Shown here piece after piece: positions 1,046 through 10,342 of a stretch of DNA of 15,809 nucleotides. The position numbers were made by a program, and so were the translations under genes. Numbering within the stretch: the first letter of the stretch is position 1; the number at the start of each line of letters is the position of its first letter. This DNA comes from a virus (taxonomy: Duplodnaviria > Heunggongvirae > Uroviricota > Caudoviricetes), in IMG/VR virus record IMGVR_UViG_2537561934_000016; one strand, written 5' to 3'. The notes below the pieces were generated by a model. That model made no database searches. It saw only the letters and a program-made list of their open reading frames with translations, and had not been told where the DNA came from.

Positions 1046-1084
1046 CCCGTACATATACGGGTTATCCATAGTTTTAGTTTAGTT
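1031..1084. terminator. Bidirectional intrinsic terminator between convergent genes
   Basis: Perfect 8-bp stem AACCCGTA/TACGGGTT (1044-1051 and 1056-1063) with a 4-nt loop, T-rich on the plus side (GTTTTAGTTTAGTT) and T-rich on the minus side (reverse complement of GATAAAGAAAAAT). Confidence 0.5.
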
Positions 1085-1348
1085 ATATTTTTTTTCCGTT
1101 CTGACTTTTTCCCACTCAGCTCGCCCTTCTTCCCGTCTTTTGTCAATATATTCCGCAAGATCCTGAATGTTGATGCAGCGTTTTGCTTTTTGTGATGTAC
1201 CGATGCGATATGTAGGTACAGGCAACTTACAAGCGTTTGCTTTTGCTTCTGCTGTGGCTGGACTCATACCAAAGTATTTTTGACTAACTGCTGAGAGTTC
1301 AATGTTTGGGGTATTGAATTCAGCCATCAGTAAAAACAAGGTATTCAT
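1079..1348 (-). CDS. PrtN-family (pyocin-activator-like) small DNA-binding regulator, 89 aa
   Basis: Translation MNTLFLLMAEF ... IQDLAEYIDKRREEG matches the remembered PrtN-family pattern (MNTLFLLMA ... DLAAYID). ATG confirmed as cat at 1346-1348, with GGAG 8 nt upstream on the minus strand. Confidence 0.75.
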   Translation of the reverse strand: MNTLFLLMAEFNTPNIELSAVSQKYFGMSPATAEAKANACKLPVPTYRIGTSQKAKRCINIQDLAEYIDKRREEGRAEWEKVRTEKKYN

Positions 1349-3243: not shown

Positions 3244-3606
3244 TTAACGACCTGCTGCGCGGAGTTTTCCGTCAGGTTCACCGGCAAGAGTCAGTAATTG
3301 TCCCTGGTCCTCCTGCAGAATAGTCAGGCGACCACCGCGATTGACATACATCGGCGTTTCGGTGGTGTCTTCTTCGGAAATTTTCCCGCGGTTAGTCGGG
3401 CGAACATATGAGAGTTTGTGTTTGATTTTCACACGGTTCTCATCAAATGGTTCGATTTCCAGGTTGAGTGAGACCTTACCTTTGGTTTTCGTGTTCATCA
3501 CACCGGAAGCGACTTCACTGAGAACTGCGCCGATTTTGGTTTCAAATACGCCGCCGTCCAGCTCCCCGATAAATGCCTGCACATCAGTACTGCGTTCGCT
3601 AGCCAT
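3244..3606 (-). CDS. yfdP: YfdP-like prophage protein, 120 aa
   Basis: The 6-frame ORF runs to 3837, but its N-terminal 77 residues are Cys/Arg-rich and not protein-like. The ATG at 3604-3606 has a strong GAGGAG 7 nt upstream and gives MASERSTDVQAFIGELDGG..., 120 aa. Symbol assigned from remembered length and adjacency to the YfdQ-like gene. Confidence 0.6.
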   Translation of the reverse strand: MASERSTDVQAFIGELDGGVFETKIGAVLSEVASGVMNTKTKGKVSLNLEIEPFDENRVKIKHKLSYVRPTNRGKISEEDTTETPMYVNRGGRLTILQEDQGQLLTLAGEPDGKLRAAGR

Positions 3607-3654
3607 TTTGCTGCTCCTCATCATATCGACCCTGCAAGGTCGGTTGGTTTCTCC

Positions 3655-3743
3655 ACAAAACAGAGAAGAACACCTGCGGTGGCAGCCGCCCGGATGGATT
3701 GGGTTATGAGCCCGTCGTCCGGTGATGCTCTTCTCTGTTTTGT
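3655..3743. repeat. Long inverted repeat (about 17 of 18 bp) flanking a roughly 53-nt GC-rich spacer
   Basis: ACAAAACAGAGAAGAACA (3655-3672) against TGCTCTTCTCTGTTTTGT (3726-3743); 15 contiguous bp are perfectly complementary. Confidence 0.45.
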
Positions 3744-3789
3744 AAAAAGAGCGGTACCAGCCGGAAGCAAGTGTACAAACTGGTACCGC
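3744..3789 (-). terminator. Candidate intrinsic terminator (minus strand)
   Basis: Perfect 10-bp inverted repeat GCGGTACCAG (3751-3760) / CTGGTACCGC (3780-3789) with a 19-nt loop. On the minus strand the hairpin is followed by TCTTTTTAC. Confidence 0.3.
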
Positions 3790-4238
3790 CAAAGCAGTGG
3801 CTGTTGTGGTGGGGTTGTCACTCAGGCGTATGGTCAACCTGACAATCCGGTGTCCTCAACGGGGAAAGAGTAACCCCGCCATACTTACCGCCGCGCCATT
3901 TCGCGGATTACCACAACGCTGAGAGCACTTAGCCAGTTACGGCACCACACTTTGTCGCGGTTCCATAAATGCCCTCATCGTTGCACCCTGGTCTCTTCCC
4001 AGGCGTCAAACCGGATCGCCACGCTGGTTAGGCGTCTTATCAGCATCATCATTGACTTGCACATTCCGGCTACCTGGTTTGTTTGCCCGAGCAAGGAGTG
4101 GATTGTCCCCTTTAACGTCCCCAGACCGCTAACGACGCATGTGCCATACGCCGTGTTACAACCAAATTTAGTTTAATCTTGCCTGTGTTATGTATCCTAT
4201 AGATACATTATGTATCTTAAGGGTACATTGTCAAGTAT

Positions 4239-4260
4239 AAAAAAACCTGCCGAAGCAGGT
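4239..4260 (-). terminator. Intrinsic terminator downstream of the cI-like repressor gene
   Basis: Minus-strand sequence AACCTGC-TTCG-GCAGGTT followed by TTTTTTT (plus-strand A run 4239-4245, stem 4245-4260). Lies 13 nt past the repressor stop. Confidence 0.5.
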
Positions 4261-4272
4261 TATAAATATTGA

Positions 4273-4947
4273 TTAGGCCTTTATTTTGTATCTTCTTGGT
4301 TTTCCTGAGAAAATCACTGTACCAATTATAGAGCAATTACCGTTGATCTTAATGTAAGGTTCAGGCCAGTTTGGGTTTAATGCTTTGAGGTAACGCTGTG
4401 TTCCATCTTCTATCAACCGCTTGAAGGTGGTTTCGCCTGTATCGTGCATCAATGCAATAACGTCGTCACCGTGGCAGGCAGGGACTTCAGGATCAACAAA
4501 AATCATGTCTCCCGGGCGGTACTCATCAATCATTGAATCACCAATCACCCGCAAGATATAAGTCATTTCGCCACAGGGTACAGGGCAGGGATAAGTTTCT
4601 GCTGTGCTCAAATCAACCTCAGAATAGCCAACTTCTTTCCATGCTCCGGCCTGTACCCATGATATGACAGGGACTAACGTTATTTGTTTGTTAGTGATTG
4701 AAACGTCAGGTTTTTTTGTGATGTTCGTTGTCTGGTGTTCTTGATCAAGCCATCCGACAGGCAGGTCGAAACATTTTTCGATGTGCCGTGCCATGCTGTC
4801 ACCGATATTTTTAGTTGCACCATCTCCCATAAACCTGCTGGTCTGGGTTGGCTCGCGATCAATCATGGTGGCAAAGGAAGAATTCCCGCCAACACCATCT
4901 CTCAGTTTTCTGGCGTTAGACCGCCGGATGTCATGGACTGTTTTCAT
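4273..4947 (-). CDS. cI: Phage CI-type repressor, N-terminal DNA-binding domain plus C-terminal S24 (LexA-like) autopeptidase domain, 224 aa
   Basis: C-terminal domain carries the S24 catalytic motifs: Ser in ILRVIGDSMIDEY and Lys in TTFKRL. The N-terminal region ends in the DLPVGWLD pattern typical of phage repressor DNA-binding domains. Divergent from a cro-like gene. Confidence 0.85.
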   Translation of the reverse strand: MKTVHDIRRSNARKLRDGVGGNSSFATMIDREPTQTSRFMGDGATKNIGDSMARHIEKCFDLPVGWLDQEHQTTNITKKPDVSITNKQITLVPVISWVQAGAWKEVGYSEVDLSTAETYPCPVPCGEMTYILRVIGDSMIDEYRPGDMIFVDPEVPACHGDDVIALMHDTGETTFKRLIEDGTQRYLKALNPNWPEPYIKINGNCSIIGTVIFSGKPRRYKIKA

Positions 4948-4963
4948 AAAGAAATTAAAACCT

Positions 4964-4982
4964 TTGTACCGATAAGGTACAA
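4964..4982. promoter_or_regulatory. Candidate operator in the cI-cro intergenic region
   Basis: 19-bp palindrome TTGTACC-GATAA-GGTACAA with perfect 7-bp arms, 17 bp upstream of the cI start and about 55 bp upstream of cro. A further GGTACA half-site lies near 5026-5031. Confidence 0.4.
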
Positions 4983-5037
4983 GTATCTTGAAGGTTCATC
5001 TCAATCATGTAATATGTATACCGGAGGTACATATTGT

Positions 5038-5247
5038 ATGAAAGCGTATTGGGACTCTTTAACCAAAGAACAGCAGGGTGAGTTGGCCGGAAAAGTTGGC
5101 TCAACACCAGGCTACTTACGGCTGGTTTTCAATGGTTATAAAAAAGCCAGTTTTGTGCTGGCTAAAAAACTTGAGCAATGCACGTCAGGTGCAATTACGA
5201 AATCTGACTTAAGACCGGATATCCGGAAGACTGGGATGTCCTGCTGA
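5038..5247 (+). CDS. cro: Cro/YdaS-like HTH regulator, 69 aa
   Basis: ATG at 5038 with GGAGG 10 nt upstream. Translation MKAYWDSLTKEQQGELAGKVGSTPGYLRLVFNGYKK ... GAITKSDLRPDI resembles prophage Cro/YdaS proteins, which end in a DLRPDIF-type motif. The track's upstream extension to 4735 is antisense to cI and rejected. Confidence 0.7.
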   Translation: MKAYWDSLTKEQQGELAGKVGSTPGYLRLVFNGYKKASFVLAKKLEQCTSGAITKSDLRPDIRKTGMSC

Positions 5248-5933
5248 CGGATGTTTTTCATAAAAGCTGGCCGCTGGCCTCCGATCCTTCTCAACAAATG
5301 CGACTGATGGCAATGGCGGTGGACTCCGGCGGTGAAGACGGGGTCACTGATAATGCCTATAAATTCTGGCGTCGTTGCCGTCGTGATGGCCTTGGTAAAC
5401 GTATTTACCTGTTTAAGGGCGACAGCATCCGGCGCGCAAAACTGATCACCCGTACATTCCCTGATAACACCGGACGAACGGGCCGACGGGCGCAGGCCGC
5501 AGGTGATGTACCGCTCTGGCTTCTTCAGACGGATGCCCTGAAAGACCGGGTGAATAACGCGTTATGGCGTGACTCGCCAGGTCCCGGCTATGTGCATTTC
5601 CCTGACTGGCTGGGGAGCTGGTTTTACGACGAACTGACGTATGAAGAGCGGAGCAGTGACGGGAAATGGAGTAAGCCGGGTCGCGGTGCCAACGAAGCTT
5701 TTGACCTGATGGTGTATGCCGAGGCTCTGGTCATTCTGCATGGATACGAAAAGATCCGCTGGCCGGATGCACCGGAGTGGGCGAGCCGGGAAACCTGGCT
5801 GGAGTGTGTCCCGGACAGTACCGAACCGTCACCCACACCGGAACCGGTATCCACGCCTGTTAAAAAACAAAAACGGAAGAAAACAGTAACTGACGATGTT
5901 AACCCCTGGCTGACTTCCGGAGGATGGTTATGA
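5208..5933 (+). pseudogene. 3' fragment of lambda-type terminase large subunit (gpA-like C-terminal region), no start codon
   Basis: Reading frame opens straight after a TGA at 5205-5207 with no plausible start. Its stop overlaps the next start in an ATGA arrangement, as at the lambda A-W junction. Followed by gpW-like and portal genes. The ATPase N-terminal part and the small subunit are absent. Confidence 0.65.
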
Positions 5934-6142
5934 ATCAGAATGATATTGAAGCCATGATTCAGCGTTATACGGAAGCTGAAATGGCGGTGCTGGACGGAAA
6001 ATCCGTCACTTTTAATGGTCAGCAGATGACCATGGAAAACTTATCTGAGATCCGGCAGGGGCGGCAGGAGTGGGAGCGCCGCCTTGCGGCTCTGATTACA
6101 CGACGACGGGGGCATCCCGGGTACCGGCTGGCGAGGTTCTGA
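5930..6142 (+). CDS. gpW-like head-tail joining protein, 70 aa
   Basis: ATG at 5930 with GGAGG 7 nt upstream. C-terminus RRRGHPGYRLARF resembles the lambda gpW C-terminus (RRRGPAGFYV, recalled). Lies between terminase and portal as in lambda. Confidence 0.65.
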   Translation: MNQNDIEAMIQRYTEAEMAVLDGKSVTFNGQQMTMENLSEIRQGRQEWERRLAALITRRRGHPGYRLARF

Positions 6143-7494
6143 TGGCAATTCTTGATGATGTGATTGGCGTTTTTTCACCAGGATGGAAAGCGGCAAGGCT
6201 GCGTTCCCGAGCGGTGATCCAGGCTTATGAGGCCGTAAAAACGACGCGGACACACAAAGCCCGACGGGAGAACCGAACTGCCGACCAGTTAAGCCAGTAC
6301 GGGGCCGTGTCGTTACGTGAGCAGGCCCGTTACCTTGATAACAACCACGATCTGGTCATTGGTGTATTTGACAAGCTGGAAGAACGGGTGGTGGGGAAAA
6401 ACGGGATTATTGTCGAGCCACATCCGGTATTACGCAATGGGGCCATTGCCCGTGACCTGGCAGCGGAGATACGCACCCGATGGAGTGAATGGTCTGTCAG
6501 TCCGGAAGTCACCGGGCAGTTTACCCGCCCGATGCTGGAACGTCTGATGCTGCGTACCTGGCTGCGCGATGGTGAGGTGTTTGCCCAGATGGTTTCCGGG
6601 CGCATAAACAGCCTGACGCCTTCTGCCGGTGTTCATTTCTGGCTGGAGGCGCTCGAGCCGGACTTTATTCCCATGACCAGTGATGAGAGCAACAGGCTGA
6701 ATCAGGGCGTGTTTGTTGATGACTGGGGGCGTCCCGAAAAATATCTGGTGTATAAAAGCCGTCCTGTATCCGGACGGCAGATGGAAACCAAAGAAGTGGA
6801 TGCAGAGCGAATGCTGCATCTTAAATTTGTTCGCCGTCTGCACCAGATGCGCGGGACGTCTTTATTGTCCGGTGTACTGATCCGCCTCAGTGCCCTGAAA
6901 GAGTATGAAGATTCTGAGCTGACTGCAGCAAGGATCGCCGCTGCTCTGGGGATGTACATCCGGAAAGGCGACGGACAGAGCTATGAACCGGATGGTAATG
7001 GCAGCAAGGAGAATGAACGCGAGCTTACCATTCAGCCAGGCATTATTTACGACGATCTGAAACCCGGCGAAGAAATCGGAATGGTGAAGTCGGATCGCCC
7101 CAATCCTAATCTTGAAACTTTTCGTAATGGTCAGTTGCGTGCAGTGGCGGCTGGTAGTCGTCTGAGTTTTTCCAGTACAGCGCGCAACTATAACGGCACT
7201 TACAGCGCCCAGCGTCAGGAGCTGGTTGAGTCTACTGATGGCTACCTGATCCTGCAGGACTGGTTTATTGGTGCCGTCACCCGCCCGATGTATCGTGCAT
7301 GGCTGAAACAGGCTGTGGCATCCGGTGTTATCAGGTTACCCCGCGATCTTGACCGTTCTTCACTGTATACCGCGGTGTATTCCGGACCAGTGATGCCGTG
7401 GATTGACCCTGTTAAGGAGGCTGAGGCCTGGAAAATCCAGATTCGTGGTGGAGCGGCGACAGAATCAGACTGGGTATCCGGCAGGAAACACTGA
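6142..7494 (+). CDS. Phage portal protein (lambda gpB position), 450 aa, possibly C-terminally truncated
   Basis: ATG at 6142 overlaps the gpW stop (TGATG). Called by synteny (terminase, W, portal) and size; the sequence is not obviously close to lambda gpB from memory. The track start at 6070 is an upstream extension and rejected. Confidence 0.6.
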   Translation: MAILDDVIGVFSPGWKAARLRSRAVIQAYEAVKTTRTHKARRENRTADQLSQYGAVSLREQARYLDNNHDLVIGVFDKLEERVVGKNGIIVEPHPVLRNGAIARDLAAEIRTRWSEWSVSPEVTGQFTRPMLERLMLRTWLRDGEVFAQMVSGRINSLTPSAGVHFWLEALEPDFIPMTSDESNRLNQGVFVDDWGRPEKYLVYKSRPVSGRQMETKEVDAERMLHLKFVRRLHQMRGTSLLSGVLIRLSALKEYEDSELTAARIAAALGMYIRKGDGQSYEPDGNGSKENERELTIQPGIIYDDLKPGEEIGMVKSDRPNPNLETFRNGQLRAVAAGSRLSFSSTARNYNGTYSAQRQELVESTDGYLILQDWFIGAVTRPMYRAWLKQAVASGVIRLPRDLDRSSLYTAVYSGPVMPWIDPVKEAEAWKIQIRGGAATESDWVSGRKH

Positions 7495-7498
7495 ATGA

Positions 7499-10342
7499 AT
7501 GCACCCGTGCGGAGCAGTCGGCCAGCGTGGTGCTCTGGGAACCCATGCGACTGATGCTGCAGGCTCAGCACGTGCAGCCAGCACATCAGCCGGGCAGGCC
7601 GCGACGTCGGCTCAGTCAGCGTCTTCCAGCGCAGGAACGGCATCAACAAAGGCTACTGAAGCATCAAAAAGTGCTGCCGCTGCAGAGTCCTCAAAAAGCG
7701 CGGCGGCTACCAGTGCCGGTGCGGCGAAAACGTCAGAAACGAATGCTGCAGCGTCACAAAAATCTGCAGCCACTTCTGCATCCACCGCGACCACGAAAGC
7801 GTCAGAAGCTGCCACCTCAGCCCGGGATGCGGCGGCCTCAAAAGAGGCAGCGAAATCATCAGAAACGAGCGCAGCCTCGAGCGCCAGTAGTGCAGCCTCT
7901 TCGGCAACGGCGGCAGGAAATTCCGCGAAGGCCGCAAAAACGTCTGAGACGAATGCGGATAACAGCGCACAGGCGGCAGCGGCCTCACAAACTGCATCGG
8001 CAAACTCCGCGACAGCAGCCAAAAAATCAGAAACCAACGCGAAAAATAGCGAGGCAGCAGCAAAGAGCAGCGAAACTAATGCTAAATCCAGTGAAACAAA
8101 CGCGGCGAAATCTGCAGCGGACGCACTTAATTATCGCAACCAGGCACAATCCGTTGTTGGTAACAATATTGGTCTTGGTGAAGTTGCTATGACCTGCACT
8201 GATATCTCTGTTGAGCCATCAGGTTATATTGGATTTATCAGGATTTACATCTCAGCGAAAGGTTATCCATCAGTAGCGTCTAGTGCCGGGGATAATCTTA
8301 TTTCTGGTTATATAGTTAGATCAGAAGTGTCAACAAAAAGATATTCCGGTCTATTTGTTGGTTCAGATACAAAATCATTGTATTCGTACATTTACAGCCA
8401 AAGTTCTGGCCCGCAATGGATACGTCATACCCGCAGAGATGAATTAAGCCGCTTTGGTCAAAATGAATCAACAACTCGTATGTATGGTCCAACTGGTGAT
8501 CGTTTCTTTGAAATCCATACTAACGGGAGTTGGGGGGTTTATGATTCTTCTTCTGGACAATGGTCTCCGTTAGGTTTAGCCCAGGGTGGTACTGGTGGAA
8601 GAACTATCGAGCAAGCACGTGCGAACTTGCGGGTAATGTATGAGCAAAAAGCTGGCCTTGCTAATACTGACCTAAACACCCTTACCGGTGAATATTCTGG
8701 TTTCTATCAACAACCAACGAGCGCTTACGCAACAGAAGAATTAAATTACCCAATCGGTCTGGCGGGCGCTTTAATAGTGCTCCAAACGAGAGCCAACACT
8801 GCTTCTTCCTGCGTTCAGGTGTACCACCCTTATAATAATCCGGGAATTACTTATAGACGAATATATGAAGGAGGTAGCGGTACCTGGTCTGAATGGAAGA
8901 GAGATGTATCAACAGAAAGGGTTGAAGAGGGAAAAGAAACAACTTACGTATATTCTACGTATTCTTCAGGCGCACCACGCTTACAGGTTTCCAAATCTGG
9001 TTTGTGGGGTTGTCATAATGGCACTGGCTGGTTGCCATTAGCTGTTGGGCAAGGAGGTACAGGTGCGACAACAGTAGAAGATGCGCGAAACAACTTAAGT
9101 CTTGGCGAAAGTAGCGCAGTTAAATTTAAAAACCTTACTTTAACCGAAGCGCTCGACACGACATTAGGACTGCTTACAAAAACAGGACGAGACTGGAACG
9201 CTCAGCATACTGATAACGTCGACAAATTTAGACCAATTGCAGGCAGTACAAACGGCCCGGCAGGCTCTATGGTTCTTGGCGGCATTCATGTTCAATTTAG
9301 TAAAAATTATGCTGTGCAGTTCGGAGGCCGCAATTCCGGTTTTTGGGGAAGAACAATTGAAAATGGAACGACGCAGGAATGGAAGAAATTACTAACAGTA
9401 GACGATCTCAATTCATCTACCGCTCTTGCTGTCAGGTCATTAACCACATCTAACCCGATAAAATCTGGCGGAGGGCGGATTGATGTCCTTGGAAGCACGT
9501 CAGACTATAGCAAAATGGATTGCTTTGTACGTGGGTTTGATAGCACCGGTAATTCTCTCGCGTGGGCGTTGGGTTCATCAGTCGGCGTAAGTAAGATGCT
9601 GTCGCTAAAAAATTTCTTTAGCGGAGCTGAGATACTGCTAAATGGTAATGACGGCGCGGTTCAACTCAAAACAGGTGCTGTTAACGGTGCTAAAGCGCAG
9701 GCGCTCACTATCAACAAGGATGAGGTTAACTCAACTGTTGATTTAACTCTTACAAAACAAACAGGGACTGGCAATCGTTTTGTTTTACAGAACTTAGGTA
9801 ATACAGAACTACCATTTGCTGTCAAGGTGTGGGGTTCAGGTGATCGACAAAACGTTTTTGAGGTTGGAACGTCTGCCGCGTATCTGTTTTATGCTCAAAA
9901 AACATCGTCAGGTCAGCTGTTTGATGTAAACGGTGCTATTAACTGTACAACACTGAATCAGTTATCAGACCGCGAGCTGAAAGACAATATTCAGATTATC
10001 AGTGACGCAACCGAAGCTATCCGTAAAATGAACGGGTACACCTACACACTTAAGGAAAACGGACTGCCTTACGCTGGTGTTATTGCACAGGAAGCAATGG
10101 AGGCAATACCGGAAGCGGTAGGCTCATTCACTCATTACGGTAAAGAGTTGCAGGGACCAACGGTTGACGGCAATGAATTACGTGAAGAAACACGTTATCT
10201 GAATGTTGACTACGCCGCCGTGACGGGCTTACTTGTTCAGGTCGCCCGTGAAACAGATGATCGCGTTACCGCGCTGGAAGAAGAAAACGCAGAATTAAAA
10301 CAAAGATTATCTGCAATTGAGGCGGCGCTTGCCTCTAAATAA
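7499..10342 (+). CDS. stf: Side tail fibre (Stf-like) protein, N-terminally truncated, with C-terminal S74 intramolecular-chaperone domain, 947 aa
   Basis: Residues from about 15 onward (ATDAAGSARAASTSAGQAATSAQ ... AAATSAGAAKTSETNAAASQKSAATSAS) match an internal region of lambda Stf as I recall it. The C-terminal part begins with the S74 autoproteolysis signature SDRELKDNIQ (Ser codon at 9965-9967) and ends in a coiled coil. The frame opens 1 nt after a TGA. Confidence 0.8.
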   Translation: MHPCGAVGQRGALGTHATDAAGSARAASTSAGQAATSAQSASSSAGTASTKATEASKSAAAAESSKSAAATSAGAAKTSETNAAASQKSAATSASTATTKASEAATSARDAAASKEAAKSSETSAASSASSAASSATAAGNSAKAAKTSETNADNSAQAAAASQTASANSATAAKKSETNAKNSEAAAKSSETNAKSSETNAAKSAADALNYRNQAQSVVGNNIGLGEVAMTCTDISVEPSGYIGFIRIYISAKGYPSVASSAGDNLISGYIVRSEVSTKRYSGLFVGSDTKSLYSYIYSQSSGPQWIRHTRRDELSRFGQNESTTRMYGPTGDRFFEIHTNGSWGVYDSSSGQWSPLGLAQGGTGGRTIEQARANLRVMYEQKAGLANTDLNTLTGEYSGFYQQPTSAYATEELNYPIGLAGALIVLQTRANTASSCVQVYHPYNNPGITYRRIYEGGSGTWSEWKRDVSTERVEEGKETTYVYSTYSSGAPRLQVSKSGLWGCHNGTGWLPLAVGQGGTGATTVEDARNNLSLGESSAVKFKNLTLTEALDTTLGLLTKTGRDWNAQHTDNVDKFRPIAGSTNGPAGSMVLGGIHVQFSKNYAVQFGGRNSGFWGRTIENGTTQEWKKLLTVDDLNSSTALAVRSLTTSNPIKSGGGRIDVLGSTSDYSKMDCFVRGFDSTGNSLAWALGSSVGVSKMLSLKNFFSGAEILLNGNDGAVQLKTGAVNGAKAQALTINKDEVNSTVDLTLTKQTGTGNRFVLQNLGNTELPFAVKVWGSGDRQNVFEVGTSAAYLFYAQKTSSGQLFDVNGAINCTTLNQLSDRELKDNIQIISDATEAIRKMNGYTYTLKENGLPYAGVIAQEAMEAIPEAVGSFTHYGKELQGPTVDGNELREETRYLNVDYAAVTGLLVQVARETDDRVTALEEENAELKQRLSAIEAALASK
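7540..8110 (+). repeat. Ala/Ser/Thr-rich degenerate tandem repeats inside the tail-fibre gene
   Basis: Repeated units of the form AAKTSETNA / AAKSSETNAKSSETNAAKSA. The GC-rich low-complexity DNA gives spurious long ORFs in other frames. Confidence 0.5.

Follow-up and report, generated by a model that had tools for sequence, protein, structure and literature searches.

An early-left promoter and an untranslated leader with four conserved folded RNA modules in a defective lambdoid prophage

The window, meaning the whole stretch of 15,809 nucleotides that was analyzed here (15.8 kb), carries a defective lambdoid prophage. Its non-coding interval between yfdP and a cI-like repressor gene is a repressor-controlled early-left promoter followed by an untranslated leader of about 590 nt, which contains four conserved folded RNA modules (A, B, C, and D). 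Two of these modules, B and C, correspond to the dicF locus of other prophages, and module A is a larger structured RNA that recurs in several groups of temperate phages.

Layout of the interval and its control region

To the left of the interval lie yfdP (minus strand, ATG at 3606, 120 aa) and a YfdQ/DUF2303 gene, also on the minus strand. To the right lies the gene for a LexA-family Peptidase_S24 (cI-like) repressor (4273-4947, minus strand), and beyond it a YdaS-type cro-like gene that is divergent from the repressor gene. The original prediction had placed non-coding DNA at 3610-4272. Its non-coding character was upheld, and the left boundary was corrected to 3607, since the yfdP start at 3606 sets that edge. 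The copy of the locus in E. coli AR434 is 100% identical, and PGAP gives no feature there between yfdP and the repressor gene.

All of 3607-4272 was read leftwards, and the elements are described as minus-strand RNA. In this direction, from right to left, the order is the repressor terminator, the promoter with two operators, modules A, B, C, and D, and yfdP.

4237-4261, minus strand: intrinsic terminator of the repressor gene, AACCUGCUUCGGCAGGUUUUUUUAU (terminator scan; terminator annotated at the homologous position in phage Ayreon)
4207-4234, minus strand: PL-type early-left promoter (sigma-70 motif match; promoter annotated in phage Ayreon)
4191-4207 and 4211-4227, no strand assigned: two operator palindromes TGTAY-N7-RTACA (exact motif matches)
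3914-4166, minus strand: module A, structured RNA of about 250 nt (30-sequence alignment, covariation, covariance model)
3800-3919, minus strand: module B, cloverleaf-shaped four-way junction (homology and covariation)
3744-3799, minus strand: module C, DicF-like cassette CACUGCUUUGGCGGUACCAG-(19-nt loop)-CUGGUACCGCUCUUUUU (perfect stem; DicF alignment)
3655-3743, minus strand: module D, Y-shaped hairpin (covariation in alignment A6)
3647-3654, minus strand: conserved GGAGAAAC
3627-3642, minus strand: small covarying hairpin CGACCUUGCAGGGUCG (five of six pairs changed on both sides)
3614-3618, minus strand: Shine-Dalgarno AGGAG ahead of the yfdP ATG at 3606

The GC content is 0.53-0.56 across 3500-4100 and 0.35-0.48 in the flanks, in agreement with the GC-rich stretch noted earlier. 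BLAST comparisons with phages and E. coli genomes placed mosaic breakpoints at about 4173, 3917, 3811, and 3791. Minus-strand RNA folding of 3609-3925, the left half of the leader, gave z = -6.0, and none of 100 shuffles folded equally well. The inverted repeats that had been reported from the letters were all present, at the same positions or within a few bases of them. Furthermore, the proposal of a structured RNA was borne out: three separate modules carry compensatory base changes among homologues, and the alignment with related prophages showed that the stems are kept through such changes. The dicF-locus homology and the modular, mosaic nature of the leader had been missed at that first reading.

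The early-left promoter consists of a -35 element TTGACA (4229-4234), a 16-nt spacer, and a -10 element CATAAT (4207-4212), with 11 of 12 consensus matches. From these motifs, the transcription start is predicted near 4200. Phage Ayreon is 99.3% identical and has an annotated promoter and terminator at the corresponding places.

The two palindrome copies, TGTATCCTATAGATACA at 4191-4207 and TGTATCTTAAGGGTACA at 4211-4227, overlap the -10 element and the spacer of this promoter. When the window was searched for TGTAY-N7-RTACA at no more than one mismatch, four matches were obtained, all of them exact, with 1.5 expected; at the same setting, at least four matches occurred in 7 of 200 shuffles. 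The two further copies (4965-4981 and 5015-5031) are located between the repressor and cro-like genes, and there are no others in the window. The 17-bp palindrome is read as a repressor operator, and the LexA-family repressor would bind the two copies over the promoter. We read 4191-4234 as a classical OL/PL arrangement, which represents DNA-level control and not RNA structure. The small GTATC palindrome of the original prediction does exist, but as an operator pair over the early-left promoter and not as part of an RNA element.

Structure and distribution of module A

Module A has a core of about 180 nt (3977-4157), then a predicted 3' hairpin domain (3914-3983), and includes two peripheral domains of variable length. 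Hairpin H1 is located at 4133-4153, H5 with a UNACCA loop at 4021-4035, and H6 with a GGAAGAG loop at 3987-4003. The strands between the helices are invariant and comprise UGGCACAUG, AGCGGUC, the 21-mer CAGGUAGCCGGAAUGUGCAAG (4056-4076), the ACCA loop, GGCGAU-N-CGGU-N-UGAC, and the GGAAGAG loop.

Members were sampled from 120 viral contigs with the 21-mer, and divergent members were added from further viral contigs and from the genomes of Kosakonia, Citrobacter, Kluyvera, Phytobacter, Pseudescherichia, and Erwinia. The resulting alignment A4 holds 30 non-redundant cores. The four helices of the core (26 pairs) were 96.3% paired, compared to 25-41% when the partners were slid. Eleven pairs were changed on both sides (72 cells), a level reached by none of 500 shuffles. 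The covariance model R1 scored 170.8 bits on module A in the window. Rfam gave no match for module A, either at the gathering threshold across the window or at E <= 10 on 3500-4400.

Module A is 78% identical to the P1 DNA between trnI and ban, and 82% identical to the DNA directly upstream of tRNA-Arg in an epsilon15-like phage. In P1 it directly follows tRNA-Ile2, and ban lies just downstream of its core, without an intervening terminator. The 21-mer does not vary among lambdoid, P1-like, and epsilon15-like phages and the prophages of several other enterobacterial genera, among which the overall identity of module A is only 58-80%. The core was found in 1833 of 5426 complete E. coli genomes (34%) and is annotated in none of them. 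These cores occur on chromosomes and at 554 plasmid places, including plasmids of about 90-100 kb that match like P1. In more distant clades, module A heads ORF-free leaders of 600-950 nt. No prior description was found in the accessible literature on put/HK639, on dicF-like/ban/yfdP regions, on structured-RNA discovery, or on EHEC prophage small RNAs, and module A may represent a new RNA class.

Two candidate interactions of module A gained no support. The long-range GCACAU/AUGUGC pairing proposed by RNAalifold involves invariant columns, and the sole variant (L148) breaks the pairing, which leaves it neither backed nor refuted; H1 covaries instead. The second candidate was a kissing interaction of GGCGUAUGG in module A with the loop CCAUACGCC in module B, whose columns show no covariation and which mismatches at two of nine positions in P1. 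In addition, Qin has B but lacks A.

Modules B, C, and D and the recurring array

Module B is closed by a stem of GCGUUGUGGU and ACCACAAC(A)GC. Its identity is 89% with the Qin segment directly upstream of dicF (L001, 2485-2607) and 75% with the P1 leader immediately past the ban promoter, a stretch that P1's annotators named 'dicF-like region'. Its 27 pairs were 97.4% paired, compared to 36-59% when slid, and six of them were changed on both sides. ARAGORN and the Rfam tRNA/tmRNA models detected none of these RNAs in the window, and the four-way junction of module B lacks D- or T-loop signatures. Two forms of DicF are known in K-12, one of 53 nt and a stable one of 190 nt, and the 5' end of the longer one is generated by RNase III (PMC10448788). 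Measured upstream from the 3' end of DicF in Qin, 190 nt reaches to within a few nucleotides of where the B homologue starts. By this length arithmetic, the B element would be the body of the 190-nt DicF form.

Module C contains a perfect 10-bp stem (3751-3760 / 3780-3789) followed by UCUUUUU on the minus strand, as expected if this stem is the minus-strand intrinsic terminator that had been suspected. Since this terminator is located inside a leader, an attenuation-type role is plausible. Its loop of 19 nt has a length that usually weakens intrinsic termination.

Module C is probably a small-RNA 3' module. It occupies the position of canonical DicF, directly downstream of the pre-dicF element B in a repressor-controlled prophage operon, and its terminator UUUGGCGGUACCAG...CUGGUACCGCUCUUUUU corresponds to the UUUGGCGG...CCGCC and U-run of DicF. 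It aligns with DicF at UUUGGCGGUAYCAGUUU and the U-run and differs elsewhere, in the 3' half of the hairpin, the loop, and the single-stranded 5' part. In one homologue (L054), the stem carries a compensatory A-U to G-C change, with a different loop. The Rfam DicF model (RF00039, gathering threshold 48 bits) scores 76.7 bits on Qin and gave no match in the window, nor at E <= 10 on 3500-4400, where the only Rfam matches were sub-threshold chance matches centered on the repressor terminator. Modules B, C, and D and the insert B' described below were all without an Rfam match.

The CUCCG motif, which in DicF pairs with the ftsZ ribosome-binding site, is absent from module C. RNAduplex pairing of module C with ftsZ from -80 to +40 did not surpass that of shuffles (fraction 0.39), in a crude test that did not separate DicF itself either (0.20). 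By analogy with DicF, module C may act as a regulator. The DicF-like part of the leader is a variant of the already known dicF locus, and the variant itself is new. A boxA reading of CGCUCUUUUUA at the C/D junction was rejected because the sequence varies to GCCC, GACC, or GCAA in homologues.

Module D is built of an outer stem of 19 bp, an apex conserved as CACCGGRCGACGGGCUCAUAACCCAAUCCAYCCGG, and a second, variable hairpin. The arms of its inverted repeat (3655-3679 / 3719-3743) are 25 nt long and 84% complementary, with a perfect 15-bp core at 3655-3669 / 3729-3743. A perfect 15-bp repeat had been predicted at 3655-3743 and is present, with a spacer of 59 nt in place of the 53 nt first given. 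In alignment A6 (nine sequences), module D and the small hairpin together form 35 pairs that were 94% paired, compared to 41-46% when slid, and nine pairs were changed on both sides among only nine sequences. The leader from A to D and the small-hairpin element precede different first genes in different phages.

Downstream of B, phages carry either canonical DicF or one of at least eight other hairpin/terminator cassettes, and module C of the window is one of these. All of them end in a GGCGG...CCGCC-U5 terminator, and their single-stranded parts differ. In about 24 lambdoid loci, the slot of B is occupied by an unrelated 137-nt insert, B', with the same outer stem. In epsilon15-like phages, a real tRNA-Arg occupies it, followed by a DicF-like terminator. 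Because this middle slot is interchangeable in lambdoid and epsilon15-like phages, the recurrent array is module A, then a tRNA, B, or B', and then a DicF-family hairpin. In contig L238, the known phage RNAs IsrK and C4 lie about 290 nt downstream of B and extend the same non-coding stretch; contig L013 also has both, at a distance of about 2 kb from the leader.

It appears that DicF belongs to a wider cassette family, which has the common scaffold of B plus a terminator hairpin and differs in the single-stranded parts. The diversity of these cassettes suggests that prophages diversify host-targeting small RNAs. In about one third of complete E. coli genomes, annotation pipelines leave the interval blank or give it spurious ORFs. 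The same holds for P1-type plasmids and for Stx2c- and cdt-converting phages.

Proposed mechanism and alternative readings

The reading that we favor, as somewhat better than evenly supported, is a repressor-gated, multi-domain non-coding RNA leader whose transcripts mostly end at module C and are processed, and from which read-through expresses yfdP onward. A LexA-family repressor on the two operators would control a strong sigma-70 promoter. Upon derepression, polymerase would start near 4200 and proceed leftwards through the four folded modules to yfdP. Most transcripts would stop at the intrinsic terminator of module C, at about 455 nt, and host RNases would cut them into stable non-coding RNAs. 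One of the cuts would be made by RNase III at the base of the 3' hairpin of module A, as mapped for the homologous Qin transcript. The expected products are module A (about 250 nt) and a B-C RNA (about 175 nt) that would be the counterpart of the 190-nt DicF, and because its single-stranded region is different, its targets probably differ from those of DicF. Polymerases that read through module C would pass module D and the small hairpin, which may tune the stability or translation of the first cistron, and would express yfdP, yfdQ, and the genes beyond. The leader would thereby serve both as a source of phage non-coding RNAs and as an attenuator of the early-left genes.

Among known systems, the nearest are the dicF locus (Qin, ydfABC-dicF-dicB; RF00039) and the P1 ban-operon region, which are likewise repressor-controlled prophage operons. 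In both, the homologue of B (89% and 75% identical, respectively) is directly upstream of a UUUGGCGG...CCGCC-U5 hairpin/terminator, and at the dicF locus, too, the terminator lets some transcription into the downstream genes. In K-12, DicF binds Hfq and is processed by RNase E as well as RNase III from a polycistronic precursor (PMC10448788, PMC5069750). The locus in the window differs from Qin in that it comes first after the promoter, with module A upstream instead of ydfABC, and module D and yfdP downstream instead of dicB.

A broader joint reading combines these observations. Module A would be an undescribed large structured phage RNA that moves as a mobile cassette among lambdoid, P1-like, and epsilon15-like phages and is either freed by tRNA/RNase III processing or acts on its own polymerase. 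Joined to the exchangeable middle slot (tRNA-Arg, B, or B') and to a DicF-family small RNA that is hypervariable, it would form a portable three-part non-coding RNA array of temperate enterobacterial phages. We propose this tentatively, with the balance tipping slightly against it. Strong constraint acts on module A, which stands at the very beginning of early transcription; it could work as a protein sponge, as an anti-defence RNA, or as a new kind of RNA antiterminator. As an antiterminator, it would explain early-left gene expression in these N-less lambdoid phages; as a trans-acting RNA, it would be a new RNA effector in the phage-host interaction.

The best-surviving alternative takes module A, by itself or in combination with B, for a processive antiterminator RNA like put of HK022 and HK639, a type that suppresses termination in cis and depends on the beta' zinc-binding domain. 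The emerging module A would fold and bind the elongating polymerase, which would then read through module C and later terminators with no need for an N protein. We consider this possible but doubtful. Lying right behind the promoter with terminators still to come, module A has a placement that suits a cis-antiterminator equally well, and about 34 nt separate it from the predicted start, as is the case for putL (PMC9378689). The promoter is followed by yfdP as the first gene and not by an N homologue, and terminators follow module A: besides module C in the window, Ayreon has one behind yfdQ, and an epsilon15-like phage has two behind tRNA-Arg. A 21-mer that never varies and loops that are conserved would fit a protein-contact surface. 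The uninterrupted path from the module A core to ban in P1 counts against our favored model. Furthermore, put of HK022 and the HK639 putL-like RNA are folded non-coding RNAs right after a lambdoid PL, with terminators downstream and no N there, and HK639 has its annotated RNA of about 126 nt at the same place.

However, no sequence or structure homology between module A and put was detected. Model R1 found no match in the whole HK639 genome, including the putL-like RNA, and none in the 20-30 kb segment of HK022, the latter being a weak negative since the place of put in HK022 was not located. HK022 and HK639 were absent among the blastn matches listed. Two words common to module A and put, CAUGCGUCG and GGAAGAG, were judged coincidental. 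The elements also differ in size: put is about 70 nt with two stem-loops, whereas module A is about 180-250 nt, larger by a factor of 2.5 to 3.5, and has at least four helices and variable domains. In addition, module A is found mid-operon, deep in the P1 ban operon after a tRNA, and it abuts the 5' end of a tRNA in epsilon15-like phages. Because it adjoins tRNAs, it would be cut away from the nascent RNA by RNase P and RNase E. Lastly, Qin has B and DicF but no module A.

The remaining readings are unlikely. One of them holds that the modules are functionless debris of a phage tRNA cluster, spread by recombination. B and B' do sit exactly where the epsilon15-like tRNA-Arg sits, with the same first acceptor-stem bases, module A directly follows tRNA-Ile2 in P1, and one variant (L095) has a T-arm-like GGUCCGUUCGAUUCGGACA. 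However, ARAGORN and the Rfam tRNA models matched nothing in the window, and the compensatory changes in every module, together with a 21-mer that is invariant at 58-80% overall identity, indicate purifying selection. The retention of helices with both strands changing is not expected of debris, and this reading is very improbable.

A riboswitch reading of module A, in which a metabolite or ion would be sensed to control termination at module C or translation of the gene downstream, is just as improbable. Its invariant junction strands, its covarying peripheral stems of variable length, and its place in a 5' leader ahead of a terminator are compatible with a riboswitch. However, about 120-140 nt of B/B', or a whole tRNA, lies between module A and the terminator, and module A stands before the tRNA in one clade and after it in another. 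Neither a consistent expression platform nor a common function of the downstream genes was seen, and Rfam gave no riboswitch match.

The last reading, a decayed protein-coding gene, was raised by the original prediction and can hardly be credited. Short ORFs do exist in the interval, phage annotators have called them here, and two match PHROG families of unknown function (phrog_33599 and phrog_3651), the only protein-family matches obtained. These ORFs lie on both strands, overlap one another, and gave no match in a Pfam search, and we read both PHROG families as built from ORFs miscalled in the same conserved DNA. Of the 162 positions in the phrog_3651 profile, only the last 75 are matched, and the match lies antisense to the leader; judged from the profile length and the plus-strand ORFs, a full-length member would run back over yfdP here. 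Most indels among homologues are of a length not divisible by three, diverged homologues show indels of 1, 2, 5, or 13 nt and a shift in the phase of the longest open frame, and the substitutions are compensatory in RNA helices. No longer intact gene was present among the listed matches from about 135 phage records and about 270 loci. Therefore, the earlier statement that the interval has no convincing ORF stands, and the decayed gene does not.

Several other known systems resemble the leader in part. The lambda N leader is a long structured PL leader with nutL and an RNase III-sensitive hairpin upstream of N, and here, too, a long imperfect hairpin (module D) lies just ahead of the ribosome-binding site. 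In contrast to lambda, no N-like gene follows the promoter, and the boxA-like CGCUCUUUUUA is not conserved. GOLLD and ROOL are phage and prophage RNAs, often tRNA-adjacent, with complex conserved folds and unknown function. Their Rfam models (RF01998 / RF03087) gave no match at the gathering threshold in the window or at E <= 10 on 3500-4400, and module A is far smaller than these RNAs and occurs only in Enterobacteriaceae phages. The EHEC prophage anti-sRNAs AgvB and AsxR belong to prophage small-RNA families in which the 3' hairpin module is conserved and the 5' ends vary (PMC4104026). The Rfam models for AgvB, AsxR, C4, and IsrK had no match in the window. The EHEC anti-sRNAs are located downstream of PR', whereas the leader described here is downstream of PL.

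Middle slot between module A and the terminal hairpin

The position held in the window by module B, the homologue of the segment upstream of dicF in Qin, was occupied by other sequences in related loci. In L013, L008 and L069, a 137-nt insert unrelated to B, termed module B', was located approximately +150 to +300 past the invariant 21-mer of module A, the structured leader RNA. The outer stem GCGUUGUGGU...CACCACAACAGCC enclosed B' and was the same stem as that around B. B' was found in about 24 lambdoid contigs, and no match to it was obtained in Rfam. In L045, B' was interrupted by an inserted gene.

In E. coli O157 typing phage 9 (L004 2001-2400), module A was followed by a tRNA-Arg(UCU) and then by a DicF-like hairpin/terminator, GGCGGUGAUGG...CUAUCACCGCCCUUUUU. 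This tRNA filled exactly the slot held by B in the window. In addition, the 3' domain of A in L095 (235-494) was swapped for a sequence with a tRNA T-arm-like GGUCCGUUCGAUUCGGACA, which hints that leaders of this type trade pieces with tRNA genes.

Nine consecutive nucleotides in the conserved loop of B, CCAUACGCC (window 3825-3833), were perfectly complementary to the 5' arm of the first hairpin of A, GGCGUAUGG (window 4144-4152). The P1 versions of these two segments had mismatches at two of the nine positions.

Known small RNAs near the leaders

IsrK and C4 antisense RNA modules were detected as adjacent pairs on contigs with leader modules.

IsrK/C4 pairs (Rfam matches above threshold)
L238 1171-1359
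L013 2965-3153
L127 10572-10769

The pair in L238 lay about 290 nt downstream of B; therefore, non-coding RNA cassettes form a longer array in the L238 leader. The pairs in L013 and L127 were at least 2 kb from module A. Between dicF and dicB of K-12 Qin (L001 2217-2426), an STnc100 match fell below threshold (34 bits vs. a cutoff of 47), and HK639 contained an STnc100 copy above threshold downstream of a Q-like gene (L125 44780-44985). The HK639 annotation also includes an 'M3-like RNA' after a cII-like gene (L125 37910-37969).

Internal deletion, implied second deletion and left end of the window prophage

Protein-coding features of the window prophage
1-474, SocA/Panacea-domain antitoxin-like gene
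497-1045, 182-aa ORF of unknown function
1079-1348, minus strand, PrtN-family gene
5038-5238, YdaS-type cro-like gene
5298-5930, C-terminal half of lambda-type terminase gpA (Pfam GpA_nuclease match, profile positions 141-294 only)
6070-7494, lambda-family portal gene
directly after the portal gene, within 6070-10342, 947-aa protein, Peptidase_S74 (endosialidase chaperone) domain at its C-terminus

The window prophage carries an internal deletion between the cro-like gene and terminase gpA (5038-5930). The gpA remnant begins almost directly after the cro-like gene, and the prophage has no replication, nin, Q, lysis or small-terminase genes, all of which are present in the intact relative in E. 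coli AR434. The portal gene directly adjoins the Peptidase_S74 protein, which implies a second deletion, in which the head and tail genes were lost.

In AR434, the left prophage end adjoins a truncated tRNA-dihydrouridine synthase gene, annotated as an incomplete pseudogene, downstream of zur. At 4211676-4211856, the same genome (NZ_CP029122.1) has the module A core once more, with 100% identity, about 365 kb from the window-matching copy and presumably in another prophage.
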